Below, in pieces: positions 167 to 3,721 of a DNA stretch of 5,906 bases. Within the stretch, counting starts at the first letter, position 1. Every line of letters starts with the position of its first letter. This DNA is from a virus (Duplodnaviria > Heunggongvirae > Uroviricota > Caudoviricetes), in IMG/VR virus record IMGVR_UViG_2648501392_000003; one strand, given 5' to 3'. Made by a program: the position numbers and the translations under genes. Under the pieces are notes generated by a model that was not told the DNA's origin, did no database searches, and worked only from the letters and a program-made list of their open reading frames with translations.

Positions 167-1453
167 TTACCCCACTTTCTTATGGGGCATACATGGGACA
201 CTTTCAGATAGTCTTTTGTTAAGGAGTTCTATCTGTTCGTGATTGTTGTCTTTCATCCATGCTCCGTAAACATTGAATACCATTTGTGCGTTTGTGTGGC
301 CCATCTGGCTTGCGATAAAACTAGGATTAGCTCCAGCGGCAAGTGACCAGCATGCATAAGTATGCCTGGATTGGTACGATTTTCTGTGTCTCAGACCTGC
401 GCGTTTTAAGATACTTGTCCATGACTCCCTGATGGAGTCAACTTTGTAGTGAGGTCCAGACAACAGCTGCTGTTTTATTACCTGAGGGCTAAAAACAAAA
501 GTACATTTATGCACAGCAGTTCTCCCATATTCCCTCTGCTTTACCTCTACAGAATGTTGCTTTCCAAGCATGGTCATTTCCGCTTGGCTTTTAAGAGCAT
601 CAATAGCTGGTTGAACCAGATGAATTGTCCTTCCGGTGCCAGCATCGGTTTTTGGTGGAGTGAATTCGCCAAGTTTTGTATAATTTCTACGGATGGTTAT
701 AGTCCTTGCTTTAAGGTCTATATCTTCCCATGCCAGCGATACCAACTCCCCGTGACGAATACCCGTGTATACAGCGAGAATCCACAGGTTTTTTGTTTGT
801 TGATGACGGCAAGCCTCAATAAAACGAATAAATTCGTCACGGGTGAGAGGATCTGGTTTTACCTTGGACTTTTTTAAGGGAGCCAGACCGTTAAATGGGT
901 TTCCTGAGGTATAACCATTATCTGTTGCAAATTGAAACATTCCAGCTATGGTTGTCATATAGTAGTTTACCGTGACCACTGAGCGCCCTTTTATGGAAGA
1001 AGTCTTTCCATTAGAAAGCTTTTGGTAACCGGTCAACAAATCTCTCCTTACGAAAAGTAAATCCTCTTTTGTTATGGATGAAACCAGTTTTTTTTCACCT
1101 AACATTGGTAACATGTTTTTAATTACTGACTGGTAACGGTTAAGTGCATTCGCACAAATCTCAATTTTCTTAAGGTCCAACCATTTTTCCGAAAGTGCCT
1201 TAACGGTTATCTCTCTTTTTCCCAGACCAAAGTGTTTCAGGTTAGGGGAATTAGGGAACTGCGCGGCGTAGTCGAAACTCCCCATTCTGATTGCAAAACA
1301 AACGGAAGTGCGAAGTTCACCAGCGATCTTCCGGTTTTTGGCTGTGTCAGGAACACCGAGGTTTTCTCTGACACGTTTGCCATTATAGTGAAACCATATA
1401 CGGAGTGATCCTCCATGGTTTTCAACGCCTGTCGGGTATGATGCGTTACTCAT
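167..1453 (-). CDS. int: Phage tyrosine integrase (site-specific recombinase) with N-terminal arm-type DNA-binding domain
   Basis: 428-aa ORF; ATG at 1453 with SD GGGAGG 4 nt upstream. C-terminal catalytic motifs are visible: TGIRHGEL (box I Arg), SRHTYACW (His-x-x-Arg region) and MGHTNAQMVFNVYGAW (His and the catalytic Tyr). N-terminus GSLRIWFHYNGKRVRENLG resembles integrase arm-binding domains. Not lambda Int (different length and sequence). Confidence 0.95.
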   Translation of the reverse strand: MSNASYPTGVENHGGSLRIWFHYNGKRVRENLGVPDTAKNRKIAGELRTSVCFAIRMGSFDYAAQFPNSPNLKHFGLGKREITVKALSEKWLDLKKIEICANALNRYQSVIKNMLPMLGEKKLVSSITKEDLLFVRRDLLTGYQKLSNGKTSSIKGRSVVTVNYYMTTIAGMFQFATDNGYTSGNPFNGLAPLKKSKVKPDPLTRDEFIRFIEACRHQQTKNLWILAVYTGIRHGELVSLAWEDIDLKARTITIRRNYTKLGEFTPPKTDAGTGRTIHLVQPAIDALKSQAEMTMLGKQHSVEVKQREYGRTAVHKCTFVFSPQVIKQQLLSGPHYKVDSIRESWTSILKRAGLRHRKSYQSRHTYACWSLAAGANPSFIASQMGHTNAQMVFNVYGAWMKDNNHEQIELLNKRLSESVPCMPHKKVG

Positions 1454-1486: not shown

Positions 1487-1741
1487 TTAACCGGAACTTG
1501 CATTTTTGGCACCTGGTTGTTTCTGGTTTTCGATCCATCGCATAATTTCTTCGATGTTGTACAGGCATTCACTGTAATGCCCAGGATCACCTTCTACAGC
1601 GTAATGGCGGTATTCTCTTCCCTGCATCCATGACTTTCTTCTGGCCCGCTCGATGGTGCCGGGCTTTAGCCCTGTTGATGCAATAAGGACTCTCTCCGTA
1701 CACCATTTGCTGGGGGTTATCTGATAGATGATTGTCTGCAT
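1487..1741 (-). CDS. xis: Excisionase-like / recombination directionality factor (small winged-helix DNA-binding protein)
   Basis: 84-aa ORF immediately upstream of int on the same strand, with a 33-nt gap. Motifs W..E......GL.P.T..R and GREY resemble lambda Xis-type excisionases. Assignment by position plus motif, not by search. Confidence 0.6.
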   Translation of the reverse strand: MQTIIYQITPSKWCTERVLIASTGLKPGTIERARRKSWMQGREYRHYAVEGDPGHYSECLYNIEEIMRWIENQKQPGAKNASSG

Positions 1742-1759: not shown

Positions 1760-1894
1760 TCATCCACGGCAGTGGAACCACACGTCAAACATTCGTTTCA
1801 CAACTTCACGGCAGTAGAAGCCGTCGACATCACGGGTCAGGTCGTAGCGATTGCCGAATGTCTTGCGAACCCAGAACTCAAAAGCCGTATGCAT
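1760..1894 (-). CDS. Hypothetical small protein, 44 aa (MHTAFEFWVRKTFGNRYDLTRDVDGFYCREVVKRMFDVWFHCRG)
   Basis: Absent from the ORF track (too short). ATG at 1894..1892 preceded by a strong SD (GGAGGTGA, 5-nt spacer), 1 codon after the stop of the 80-aa gene. Stop TGA at 1762..1760, 18 nt before the xis start. Confidence 0.5.
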   Translation of the reverse strand: MHTAFEFWVRKTFGNRYDLTRDVDGFYCREVVKRMFDVWFHCRG

Positions 1895-1897
1895 GTA

Positions 1898-2140
1898 TCA
1901 CCTCCGTTGTATTGCGCGTAATTTTTTCAGGCGCATTTCCTGCTCAGTGCCCGCCAGAATTTTGCGGTACTCCTGTTGGTCAATATGTTCGAACAGGTTG
2001 TTGAACTCACCAATGCGTACCCGTCCGGAGCGCCCGTCCATGCGTCGAAAGAACACTGAGTGCTGAGTACTGCGAGTAATCACCACAGGGTATCCGGCTC
2101 TGTCCGTGTATATCTGACCACGTTGAATCAGAGCGAACAT
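1898..2140 (-). CDS. Hypothetical basic protein, 80 aa, arginine-rich C-terminus
   Basis: Track ORF; ATG at 2140 lies 4 nt after the TAA of the 27-aa peptide gene (TAAAGGAATG), so reinitiation/coupling is plausible, though the SD spacing is poor. No family recognised. Confidence 0.5.
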   Translation of the reverse strand: MFALIQRGQIYTDRAGYPVVITRSTQHSVFFRRMDGRSGRVRIGEFNNLFEHIDQQEYRKILAGTEQEMRLKKLRAIQRR

Positions 2141-2144
2141 TCCT

Positions 2145-2228
2145 TTATCCCCAGCGGAAAAGCGAATACAGAATAAATGCCACCGCTATTGCAACTCCTA
2201 CAGCGGTGAATGCTTCAGGCCAATTCAT
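2145..2228 (-). CDS. Hypothetical 27-aa hydrophobic single-pass membrane peptide (MNWPEAFTAVGVAIAVAFILYSLFRWG)
   Basis: Absent from the ORF track. ATG at 2228..2226 overlaps the TGA of the upstream DUF551 gene (TGATG) and is preceded by GGAGGT with a 6-nt spacer. An 18-residue apolar core is flanked by Trp/Arg. Confidence 0.5.
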   Translation of the reverse strand: MNWPEAFTAVGVAIAVAFILYSLFRWG

Positions 2229-2731
2229 CACTTCACCTCCTGCGGCGGTTCCGGTAGCGGCATCCAGTGGGTTACCTCTTTGAGATACAGGTCTTCGCCA
2301 TCACCGTCATCCCAAGTGGGATTGCCATCATTAAACCAGTCGCCATATACGCCGACCTGAGTGTTGGGGATGTTTGGCGGGTAGTTGTTTTTAAAGTCAG
2401 CCGCTAACACATAGCATTGTCGCTCTCCCATTTCTGGCATTTGCTCACTACAGCTTATCCAACCATCCGGAGTTACCGGAACTGGCGGCGCGGCATATAG
2501 TGGTTTAGGTGATATCTCCGCACGTTTTGCGTATGCTTCAACTGTGTCAGGATTAAACAGGATTATGTTTTCGCCGCATTCCCACGCTATTGGTTTTGCT
2601 TCCAGCGATGCCAGAGCAATTCGTGCCAGTTCTTCCGCTTCTTCTGCTGGCAGTACAACGTTGCTACCAGGTCCGTATGTTTCGCGCCACTGCTTGATTG
2701 TCAGTAGTCGCTCTTTGGTAATAGTGGTCAT
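2228..2731 (-). CDS. DUF551-type phage protein (167 aa)
   Basis: C-terminal HWMPLPEPP motif is characteristic of DUF551 as I recall it. I place the start at the internal ATG 2731..2729 (SD AAGGAGAG, 4-nt spacer), 1 nt after the Ea22-like stop, rather than at the track's upstream ATG at 2893, which lies inside the Ea22-like gene. Confidence 0.75.
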   Translation of the reverse strand: MTTITKERLLTIKQWRETYGPGSNVVLPAEEAEELARIALASLEAKPIAWECGENIILFNPDTVEAYAKRAEISPKPLYAAPPVPVTPDGWISCSEQMPEMGERQCYVLAADFKNNYPPNIPNTQVGVYGDWFNDGNPTWDDGDGEDLYLKEVTHWMPLPEPPQEVK

Positions 2732-2732
2732 A

Positions 2733-3503
2733 TCACTCTCCTTTGATGCAAATGCCAGCGGCGTGCTCGGCTTCACTTTGTTCCCAAAACCACTTGTGAA
2801 GCGCCATAAGCTTTTCGTCAATCGGTGCATATTTGCGATTAAAGTAGGCCTGAGCATCTTTCTCAGATTCGTCCGGCAATTCGCCTGGGCCAAACAGTGT
2901 GTTATAAATCCATGCTAGTCCGCTCTTAGCGTCGCCAGTTGCCTGCCATTCGATAATGGCAGCCTGCATGACCAGAATGTTTTTCCCGATTAACAGGTCC
3001 AGTTCTTTGTACCGGTTGCGGATGTATGCATTCTCGCTTTGTAATTTTGCGTTGCGCTTTTCTGAGGCTTCAAGTAACGCCTGCTTATCGCGTAGCGCTT
3101 CTTCCAGTTCAGCAACATGGCATTCGCTATCAATAAGGTTGTTCTCTGCTGCTTCAAGCTCAACACGCAGCTTCCCTACTGTTAGCGCAATATCCTCGTT
3201 CTCCTGGTCACGGCGTTTGATGTATTGCTGGTTTCTTTCCTGTTCATCCAGCAGTGCCAGCACGGTAGCCGGGTTAGCCTCTGCTATGAATTCAGCGTTT
3301 GCATAAGCCTGAGCATCTGATTCAATCAGGCAGTTAACATGACATTCCGCAATCACGCCACCGGGTTCTCCTTTCCATTTTTGGCAAACAAAAACTCCTG
3401 TTAAATTGCCGTGCTGGTTAACAGATGTATGCCCTACGATGTAGCTTCCTTTAGTTGCTTTCTCTGCCTTTTCACGCAGTGCCTGATAATTAATTTCGCT
3501 CAC
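2733..3503 (-). CDS. Ead/Ea22-like protein with central coiled-coil (256 aa)
   Basis: GTG start at 3503..3501 overlaps the TGA of the upstream gene (GTGA), with SD AGAGGT and a 5-nt spacer. Central region has heptad-like E/K/L/A-rich sequence; the C-terminal LAWIYNTLFGPGELPDESEKDAQAYFNRKYAPIDEKLMALHKWFWEQ resembles lambda Ea22 as I recall it. Longer than lambda Ea22. Confidence 0.75.
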   Translation of the reverse strand: MSEINYQALREKAEKATKGSYIVGHTSVNQHGNLTGVFVCQKWKGEPGGVIAECHVNCLIESDAQAYANAEFIAEANPATVLALLDEQERNQQYIKRRDQENEDIALTVGKLRVELEAAENNLIDSECHVAELEEALRDKQALLEASEKRNAKLQSENAYIRNRYKELDLLIGKNILVMQAAIIEWQATGDAKSGLAWIYNTLFGPGELPDESEKDAQAYFNRKYAPIDEKLMALHKWFWEQSEAEHAAGICIKGE

Positions 3504-3721
3504 TTCGAACCTCTCTGTTTACTGATAAGCTCCAGATCCTCCTGGCAACTTGCACAAGTCCGACAACCCTGAACTGCCAGGCGTCTTCGTTCATCTATGG
3601 GATCGCCACACTCACAACAATGAGTGGCAGATATAGCCTGGTGGTTCAGGCGGTGCATTTTTATTGCTGTGTTGCGCTGTAATTCTTCAATTTCTGATGC
3701 TGAATCAATGATGTCTGCCAT
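3500..3721 (-). CDS. TraR/DksA-family C4 zinc-finger protein (73 aa), lambda Orf73-like
   Basis: Four-Cys zinc-ribbon arrangement (CCEC ... CRTCASC) ending ASCQEDLE, typical of TraR/DksA-family proteins. Size and position match lambda orf73 as I recall it. Confidence 0.8.
   Translation of the reverse strand: MADIIDSASEIEELQRNTAIKMHRLNHQAISATHCCECGDPIDERRRLAVQGCRTCASCQEDLELISKQRGSK

Follow-up and report, generated by a model that had tools for sequence, protein, structure and literature searches.

A conserved 27-codon open reading frame in the early-left operon of a lambdoid prophage: a candidate phage membrane microprotein

The exo-xis region in lambdoid phages influences lysogenization, induction, and host survival through genes that are poorly understood. 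In a 5,906-nucleotide (nt) stretch of viral DNA that carries part of this region (IMG/VR record IMGVR_UViG_2648501392_000003, Caudoviricetes; the whole stretch is referred to here as the window), a gene encoding a DUF551 protein is followed by a gene encoding a DUF4222 protein after a gap of 87 nt, and the locus raises the question of whether this gap is truly intergenic. It holds an open reading frame (ORF) of 27 codons, here called the small ORF, which is conserved across phages of several types. The account favored here is that of a missed gene for a 27-residue inner-membrane microprotein that would modulate a partner early in lytic growth, and the chances of that account as a whole are put at about even. 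Small membrane proteins are a recognized, under-annotated class, and this ORF lies in the early operon of medically important Shiga-toxin (Stx) phages (933W, VT1-Sakai, and VT2-Sakai); an overlooked membrane peptide in or beside the exo-xis region is a concrete new candidate for the effects attributed to it.

The small ORF and its conservation

The small ORF is defined by the following elements.

2145..2228, minus strand: small ORF, 27 codons plus a TAA stop, product MNWPEAFTAVGVAIAVAFILYSLFRWG, marked by a homology island, third-position bias, and neutral simulations
2233..2241, minus strand: Shine-Dalgarno site AGGAGGTGA, matching the anti-Shine-Dalgarno sequence over 9 nt and ending 4 nt short of the ATG
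2226..2230, minus strand: TGATG stop/start overlap, with the DUF551 TGA at 2228-2230, the small-ORF ATG at 2226-2228, and one A shared
2208..2222, minus strand: W-P-E-A-F motif, codons 3-7, predicted periplasmic interface and family hallmark, from counts in 87 family sequences
2157..2213, minus strand: predicted transmembrane helix, codons 6-24, from hydropathy, holding the conserved small-residue ladder G11, A13, A15, A17

The ORF runs from an ATG at 2228-2226 to a TAA at 2147-2145, is followed after 4 nt by the DUF4222 ATG at 2140, and exactly fills the 87-nt "intergenic" gap. Its Shine-Dalgarno site is embedded in the final codons of the DUF551 gene; within it GGAGGT occupies 2240-2235, separated from the ATG by the 6-nt spacer GAAGTG, and the junction of the two genes reads ...CAGGAGGTGAAGTGATGAATTGG... 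on the minus strand. The TGATG overlap has the form of a translational coupling junction between the DUF551 gene and the small ORF. A first-pass annotation of this DNA had described a 27-codon ORF at these positions with a near-ideal ribosome-binding site (GGAGGT, 6-nt spacer), a start overlapping the upstream stop, and an apolar helix with a Trp/Arg anchor, and it was borne out in every sequence detail, the ribosome-binding site proving to be part of the longer 9-nt match. The ORF listing also offers a GTG start at 2231 (28 amino acids), only 3 nt past GGAGGT; among homologs the ATG alone is conserved as a start, and the GTG is not. The last codons of the ORF, TGG GGA, form a GGGGA Shine-Dalgarno-like element, the sole one for DUF4222.

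Mean Kyte-Doolittle hydropathy over residues 6-24 (19 residues) is 2.28, close to the family median of 2.22. The helix is nearly free of charged and polar residues, is flanked by the aromatics W3/F7 and Y21/W26, has R25 at its C-terminal end, and leaves a tail of only three residues, R-W-G. A ribosome-binding site, a conserved frame, and a hydrophobic stretch of bilayer length, the sequence marks of a single-pass membrane protein of at most 50 amino acids, are thus all present. A lipoprotein or signal peptide was considered and rejected, there being no lipobox and Cys24 being replaced by Phe in the window allele.

Of 5,000 dinucleotide shuffles of the 110-nt region, 0.04% combined a Shine-Dalgarno site and a transmembrane-grade stretch with an ORF that starts at ATG and spans 25 codons or more; by this measure a chance origin is excluded, and the comparative evidence is much stronger still. 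The first-pass annotation had proposed a tblastn search as a check on conservation, and the frame proved to be conserved: in 50,697 phage records, 27-residue homologs at 48-70% identity were found in 933W, VT2-Sakai, ArgO145, Stx2a_WGPS2, PhiR12, and virulent Vequintavirinae, and identical copies in VT1-Sakai, YYZ-2008, BP-4795, and others. In ATG-anchored alignments of the window with 933W, ArgO145, and the Vequintavirus TH18, identity is 0.57-0.90 inside the 84 nt of the ORF and at background (~0.1-0.4) in the flanks on both sides. It climbs within ~21 nt 5' of the ATG and drops at the stop codon, and the conserved unit is therefore the Shine-Dalgarno site together with the ORF.

A degenerate DNA pattern pulled out 120 viral contigs, to which other loci were added, and this collection contains 58 distinct intact alleles encoding 34 distinct peptides, all of them retrieved as 27-codon alleles. 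Column entropy among these alleles is 0.36, 0.26, and 0.78 at codon positions 1, 2, and 3, an excess at the third position that none of 20,000 permutations matched, and the same ordering is seen in the 17 codons left free by the search pattern. Amino acid replacements fall nearly all within A, V, I, L, M, F, and T. When the observed number of substitutions was placed at random on the window allele in a neutral simulation, the open frame and the observed hydrophobicity survived in 0.03-3% of cases, depending on the lineage. A looser pattern scan of one genome per species served as a negative control, in that none of its 27 chance matches had an open hydrophobic 27-codon frame; true members occurred only in Escherichia and Shigella and on two tiny contigs. 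These two contigs (L142, Xanthomonas pisi, 431 bp; L160, Acinetobacter idrijaensis, 369 bp) carry copies of E. coli-phage type, one of which encodes the 933W peptide, and they most likely represent contamination of those assemblies. From this sequence evidence the small ORF is very probably a real translated gene, and its alleles indicate purifying selection for the hydrophobic helix and its motif.

The first-pass annotation had called the gene unannotated, which holds for all RefSeq/PGAP and phage records inspected but not for a handful of GenBank entries in which the exact peptide appears as a "hypothetical protein" or is mislabeled "DUF551, partial". A word-indexed search of 5.8 billion proteins returned three clusters only, and a full-text literature search for the peptide strings gave no occurrence. 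The window peptide has no significant match in Pfam, PHROG, NCBIfam, PADLOC, or PDB; in contrast, all neighboring genes, and even a 40-amino acid ORF that takes the same position in another phage, have PHROGs. PADLOC likewise returned no match for the DUF551, DUF4222, and 44-amino acid neighbor proteins. In the record of Stx2 converting phage I (AP004402.1), the small-ORF region (L251:301-1050) is covered by a long annotated ORF on the antisense strand (ORF-38), and the small ORF is missed; ORF-38 is likely an over-annotation.

Operon context, coupling, and distribution

Every gene of the window lies on the minus strand, and together they make up the early-left arm of a lambdoid prophage.

167-1453, minus strand: integrase, which with the excisionase ends the early-left arm (coordinates transferred from locus L250, 100% identical)
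1487-1741, minus strand: excisionase (coordinates mapped from the same locus)
1760-1894, minus strand: 44-amino acid ORF
1898-2140, minus strand: DUF4222 gene, 80 amino acids, downstream of the small ORF (Pfam PF13973, E = 9e-16)
2228-2731, minus strand: DUF551 gene, 167 amino acids, upstream of the small ORF (Pfam PF04448, E = 3e-20; also PGAP in the identical E. coli 14EC001 locus)
2733-3503, minus strand: Ea22-like gene, the next cistron upstream (Pfam Ead_Ea22, E = 4e-36)

The operon is tightly packed, the junction between the Ea22-like and DUF551 genes being TGATATG, and upstream of the Ea22-like gene come more exo-xis genes and then exo and bet. Positions 2140-2250 of the window are 100% identical to a prophage adjoining mlrA in E. 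coli 14EC001, in which the operon order (PGAP) is cIII-kil-gam-bet-exo-...-Ea22-DUF551-[87-nt gap, small ORF]-DUF4222-hypothetical-xis-int. By this context the prophage is inserted at mlrA and the small ORF belongs to its pL early-left (exo-xis) operon, in agreement with the accessory early-operon slot beside int and xis that the first-pass annotation had assigned to the ORF. It is the only predicted membrane peptide in the exo-xis segment of the window. A consensus scan of both strands between 2145 and 2260, which is weak evidence by nature, found no promoter- or terminator-like site close to the ORF; Rfam gave no match at E ≤ 1 on either strand, the RNA fold of the region is unexceptional (z = -0.38), and an RNA element was rejected on these grounds. 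In lambda and phage 24B, both infection and induction are followed early on by expression of exo-xis region genes (PMC4195576). Two side observations concern the neighborhood: residues 145-249 of the Ea22-like protein match the PADLOC model PDLC02890 "DpdH" (E = 5.6e-37), the N-terminal part being Pfam Ead_Ea22, and a TraR/DksA-family (lambda Orf73-like) gene at L250:4614-4832 (window ~3419-3637) is recorded by PGAP as an incomplete pseudogene lacking its C-terminus.

In 120 of 128 loci the start codon of the small ORF overlaps the stop codon of a preceding ORF that is 50 amino acids or longer (ATGA in 97, TGATG in 23), and 40 of the 43 distinct upstream contexts hold a Shine-Dalgarno site of 4 nt or more, spaced 3-12 nt from the start. 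The first-pass annotation had named the upstream gene as DUF551, which the Pfam match confirms, and had tied the ORF to it by coupling; the overlap at the junction stands, but the link is not an obligatory one. A DUF551 domain is found in the upstream gene of the window, of WGPS2 and PhiR12, and of a 98-kb plasmid, and is lacking in that of 933W (p77), ArgO145 (gp10), phi467, TH18 (the "EaA" gene), and a further locus (L248), such that at least four unrelated upstream genes besides DUF551 precede the same ORF and Shine-Dalgarno site. With these five upstream genes free of the domain, and with under half of 80 DUF551-anchored loci holding a recognizable copy, an obligatory DUF551 partnership was rejected. 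Unrelated upstream proteins end in similar residues (…EVNQ, …EVK), since the Shine-Dalgarno site of the small ORF is written into the codons for them. The ORF lies in the -1 frame of every upstream gene, and in 933W that frame is closed 6 codons upstream; a programmed -1 frameshift producing a DUF551-helix fusion was rejected, as there is no slippery heptamer, the upstream genes are unrelated, and the Shine-Dalgarno site and ATG are conserved.

Downstream of the ORF lie, depending on the phage, DUF4222 at 4 nt after the stop, an intrinsic-terminator-like hairpin straight after the stop (ArgO145-type), hok/sok (933W-type), or other genes, and because this context varies the small ORF must be more than a coupling device for DUF4222. 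The coupled slot after the DUF551 stop is taken in some phages by a 40-amino acid membrane ORF, MNKCNALLYAMVIGFGLAAGIRVYITWESLINLAWSAIRG (phrog_5525), and in others by a 94-amino acid ORF with an N-terminal helix (phrog_667), both of unassigned function.

By blastn, the region is present in 1,655 of 5,426 complete E. coli genomes (~30%), with up to seven copies per genome; 162 of the places found are on plasmids, and many matches span just the ORF (query positions 22-107). Plasmids of ~98 kb carry it together with Ea22-like, DUF551, and Phd/YefM genes, as at L249:2523-2606 (E. coli MINF_9A plasmid 3, 98.8 kb), and are presumably phage-plasmids. Virulent rV5-like Vequintavirinae (Escherichia phage vB_EcoM_TH18, L131:1501-1584; Av-05, 24-2-1, and 19-1-2) carry the small ORF with genes annotated as "EaA protein" and "ea22 protein", and lytic myoviruses have therefore acquired a piece of the lambdoid accessory region.

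The 80 loci mentioned above were anchored on DUF551 rather than on the small ORF and thus form an unbiased sample. About 24 hold an intact coupled ORF. In 10 POCJ13-like loci, which are close relatives, codon 3 reads TAG in place of TGG, and in one further locus a frameshift fuses the ORF to DUF4222; two hold decayed remnants, and the rest have other genes or an empty slot. Further inactive copies are found in vB_EcoS-689R5 (a 1-nt deletion, over which a 36-amino acid coding sequence is annotated in the wrong frame) and in phiSTEC1589 (an amber codon). The codon-3 amber, seen also at L129 and L130 (~1501-1581), leaves the remaining frame intact, and the 3' halves that carry it, those of POCJ13 and phiSTEC1589, differ considerably, which suggests recombination inside the small ORF; the amber copies are natural null alleles. 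By this survey the gene is accessory and sometimes lost, yet maintained across much deeper divergence.

The wider family, predicted topology, and mode of action

A profile built from E. coli-type sequences only and run exhaustively against 1.84 billion representatives retrieved 55 proteins at E ≤ 0.001, and a second profile search retrieved 65 clusters, none of which has a Pfam domain or functional name. Members other than the E. coli variants are proteins of 27-45 amino acids, for example MNWPEAFATVGVAFAVVLFFYILFKYIERAIK, MNITNWPEAFTYIGCAFAIAIIFYSMFRWG, MSEITNWPQAFAIVGVAVCIAAVFIAICINR, and MSWPEAFAQVGVAFAVAVVVVCLAALMYGNRKP. Short hydrophobic profiles may draw compositional false positives, but the remote homology is credible because the interfacial motif and the genomic setting are shared. 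On phage contigs of 29-56% guanine-plus-cytosine (GC) content, the remote members are embedded in arrays of closely spaced small genes; their starts likewise overlap upstream stops and have their own Shine-Dalgarno sites. One remote contig has a DNA polymerase whose nearest counterparts are in Acinetobacter, Shewanella, Pseudomonas, Aeromonas, and Vibrio phages, and a second has one nearest to those of Rhizobium and Ralstonia phages; the family as a whole is found in temperate as well as virulent phages, of siphovirus, podovirus, and myovirus type. Three remote contigs gave no blastn match in the phage collection, nor did an ITNWPQAF-type peptide by tblastn, and 29 family members had no meaningful Pfam or PHROG match and no significant curated-family or structure match. 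The family is new to the databases and the literature searched, while the kind of element, a small phage membrane protein, is already known.

The family motif, [T/S/N]-W-P-[E/Q]-A-F-x-x-V-G-x-A-x-A-x-A, is followed by a variable C-terminal half that ends in basic and aromatic residues. Counts in the 87 family sequences, anchored on the Trp, are as follows.

Position 0: W, 87/87
Position +1: P, 84/87
Position +2: E or Q, 76/87
Position +3: A, 84/87
Position +4: F, 77/87
Position +7: V, 77/87
Position +8: G, 87/87
Position +10: A, 73/87
Position +12: A, 71/87
Position +14: A, 79/87

In-frame tandem repeats of Ala-Met or Ala-Val (…AMAMAMAMAV…, …AVAVAVAL…) lengthen the helix of some alleles to give peptides of 29-35 amino acids (P0014, P0015, P0017, P0019, P0071, and P0072), and look like frame-keeping hexanucleotide repeat slippage.

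Across the 87 sequences the N-terminal flank holds 3 K/R against 98 D/E and the C-terminal flank 117 K/R against 34 D/E, a bias that by the positive-inside rule puts the N-terminus outside and the C-terminus inside. The peptide is probably a single-pass membrane protein, and the N-out, C-in orientation is moderately favored; we infer insertion and topology from hydropathy and charge, and timing from operon position. On the half of the helix predicted to lie in the outer leaflet, the alanines at every second position and the invariant G line up as small-residue (G/A-xxx-A) ladders, and surfaces of this kind serve tight helix-helix packing. That the N-terminal half is conserved and the C-terminal half free, even among phages whose hosts are distant from one another, fits a peptide that recognizes a conserved partner in the membrane. 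Judged from this pattern and from analogy with other small membrane proteins, action through a bound partner has an even chance of being correct.

According to this proposal, the small ORF would be transcribed within the pL delayed-early (exo-xis) operon of the lambdoid prophage, and ribosomes would either start on the strong Shine-Dalgarno site that belongs to it or, having finished the upstream gene, re-initiate. The short acidic N-terminus (M-N-W-P-E) would face the periplasm and R25-W26-G27 the cytoplasm, and the outer-leaflet half (W-P-E-A-F-x-x-V-G-x-A-x-A-x-A) may pack against a transmembrane helix of the partner, most likely a conserved host inner-membrane protein that the peptide would modulate during early lytic development. 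Presence in virulent Vequintavirinae points in the same direction as the pL position, to early lytic timing. More tentative is the extension of the proposal to one family in temperate and virulent phages of Gamma-, Beta-, and Alphaproteobacteria whose periplasm-proximal half-helix seizes one conserved inner-membrane machine early in infection.

Several observations weigh against the account of a translated, partner-binding membrane peptide. Pairwise ratios of nonsynonymous to synonymous substitution (dN/dS) in the helix are only ~0.5, a modest value, as would be expected of a helix that tolerates conservative changes. Variability along the helix shows no significant one-sided moment (p = 0.42), and a one-sided conserved face was accordingly not claimed. 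No gene consistently co-occurs with the small ORF. Inactivated copies in several lineages show that the small gene is dispensable. Rare in-frame fusions (P0027 and P0029, the latter at L253:3001-3432; 6 contigs) join an Ea22-like N-terminal domain to the peptide without an intervening stop, with the junction ...GAGAGTAATAAAATGAGC... (...PPLESNK-MSWPDAF...), and a tail-anchored Ea22 fusion of this kind would need a topology opposite to that predicted for the free peptide. Finally, the Sakai/933W copy (Sakai v2, NC_002695.2, 1305785-1305868) is absent from the accessible part of the published Sakai ribosome-profiling list of novel genes, a weak negative since the entries listed there are of at least 117 nt and the cultures were uninduced (coordinates in that paper are offset by -142).

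Of the alternatives, the least improbable, though still unlikely, is a membrane-damaging toxin, the leading suggestion of the first-pass annotation, that would form oligomers in the inner membrane and collapse the proton-motive force in the manner of Ibs, TisB, DinQ, and Hok, with host shut-off, killing, or abortive infection as the result. Type I toxins are similar in size and hydrophobicity, and small-residue ladders (G/A-xxx-G/A) are also found in pore-forming "glycine zipper" peptides. The 27-amino acid host protein YohP lowers membrane potential when produced (PMC12719787), and hok/sok adjoins the small ORF in 933W-type phages; however, this adjacency is just one of several downstream contexts, and Kil is already present in the same operon. 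Neither an antisense RNA antitoxin (no Rfam family at E ≤ 1, no promoter-like site nearby on either strand, no unusual fold) nor a transcript of its own held off by structure was found, the ORF being polycistronic (z = -0.38) with strong translation signals that are constitutive within the operon and not occluded. The helix is almost without charged or polar residues and has a three-residue tail, and the retention of a sharp interfacial motif in phages of 29-56% GC is more typical of specific recognition than of generic membrane damage. A holin-like role, raised in the first-pass annotation, is unlikely in view of the position outside the lysis cassette: the ORF lies between Ea22/DUF551 and xis/int with no endolysin neighbor or late control, and its C-terminal tail is of three residues and not a charged cytoplasmic one. 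Unlikely as well is an early superinfection-exclusion factor, a special case of partner binding in which an inner-membrane DNA-entry component, pilus, or transport machine is blocked. A tiny phage inner-membrane peptide, PfsE, offers a precedent by binding PilC (PMC8764522), and the occurrence of the family in sipho-, podo-, and myovirus-type, temperate and virulent phages fits a benefit that is independent of the structural module. Against it, no PADLOC defense model matches. Since the ORF lies between exo and xis, in a pL operon that is repressed, and no promoter of its own was found, it should be silent in the lysogen and hence give no protection there; exclusion or abortive infection, as put forward by the first-pass annotation, is disfavored for the prophage state on this ground and by the presence of the gene in lytic Vequintavirinae, whereas exclusion early in lytic growth is possible.

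Very improbable is a functionless peptide whose ORF relays ribosomes to DUF4222 or acts as a leader or arrest peptide regulating downstream expression. The ORF is indeed squeezed between a stop/start overlap and a 4-nt spacer, and TGG GGA is the only Shine-Dalgarno-like element for DUF4222, but sequence, length, and hydrophobicity are conserved even where a terminator-like hairpin (ArgO145-type) or unrelated genes follow, and remote relatives retain the motif in entirely different operons. There is no constant downstream gene, and the most conserved part is N-terminal (residues 3-17), distant from the stop codon. Least credible is that the ORF is untranslated, having arisen by chance or being conserved as an element of the DNA or RNA. 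No experimental sign of translation was found in the accessible portions of the literature and supplements searched, and those of "The Cryptic Bacterial Microproteome" (Enterobacteriaceae) contain, in the same portions, no such peptide or coordinates. The third-position bias, the neutral simulations, and the shuffle test nevertheless all speak for coding, as do the conserved Shine-Dalgarno site and start, the lack of an RNA structure or family, and relatives at the protein level in phages of 29-56% GC.

The partner-binding microprotein thus remains the preferred explanation. A sharp interfacial motif kept across hosts of very different GC suggests a common host target, and if a broad family does act on one shared machine, it would constitute a new general phage-host interface and might account for part of the exo-xis effects on Stx-phage development. 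The practical yield of the finding is an annotation fix, a list of residues for point mutation (W3, P4, E5, and G11), and the natural W3 amber alleles.

Comparison with known small membrane proteins

The small (≤50 amino acids) enterobacterial inner-membrane regulators KdpF, MgtS, MgrB, AcrZ, PmrR, and CydX act by binding a larger membrane protein, and the class of small enterobacterial membrane proteins was reportedly defined by Hemm, Storz, and colleagues. The small-ORF peptide resembles them in size, in its single hydrophobic helix with almost no soluble part, and in having been found by its ribosome-binding site and conservation after being overlooked by gene callers. Unlike them, it is phage-encoded, belongs to an early lytic operon, and is coupled to an upstream gene, and it shares no sequence similarity with them (no Pfam, NCBIfam, or PDB match). 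YohP, a 27-amino acid E. coli membrane protein whose production alters membrane properties and lowers membrane potential (PMC12719787), is identical in length and also has a single helix; it is, however, the product of a chromosomal stress-induced gene with an unrelated sequence and no W-P-E-A-F motif.

Type I toxins (Hok/Gef, Ibs, TisB, DinQ, and ShoB) are likewise small hydrophobic inner-membrane peptides, and hok/sok is a neighbor in 933W-type phages, but the small ORF lacks an antisense RNA, translational occlusion, and a charged tail, and has a strong Shine-Dalgarno site and coupling. Within the exo-xis region itself, the genes ea22, ea8.5, orf60a, orf61, orf63, and orf73 (PMC4195576; PMC8614690) share with the small ORF the same operon segment and an accessory, non-essential character, whereas the small ORF is not among the genes listed or modeled in those papers; in the text of PMC8614690, "transmembrane" has no occurrence and "membrane" has three, all unrelated to the small ORF. 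Among phage proteins the comparison is with PfsE of the Pseudomonas filamentous phage Pf4, the smallest protein of that phage, which resides in the inner membrane, has a conserved aromatic cluster, and binds host PilC (PMC8764522). No homology to it was detected, its phage type and host are different, its N-terminus is reported to be cytoplasmic (PMC8764522) where that of the small-ORF peptide is predicted to lie outside, and exclusion is for the small-ORF peptide at most a candidate role; what the two have in common is a tiny phage peptide with conserved aromatics and a membrane location, predicted in the case of the small-ORF peptide.

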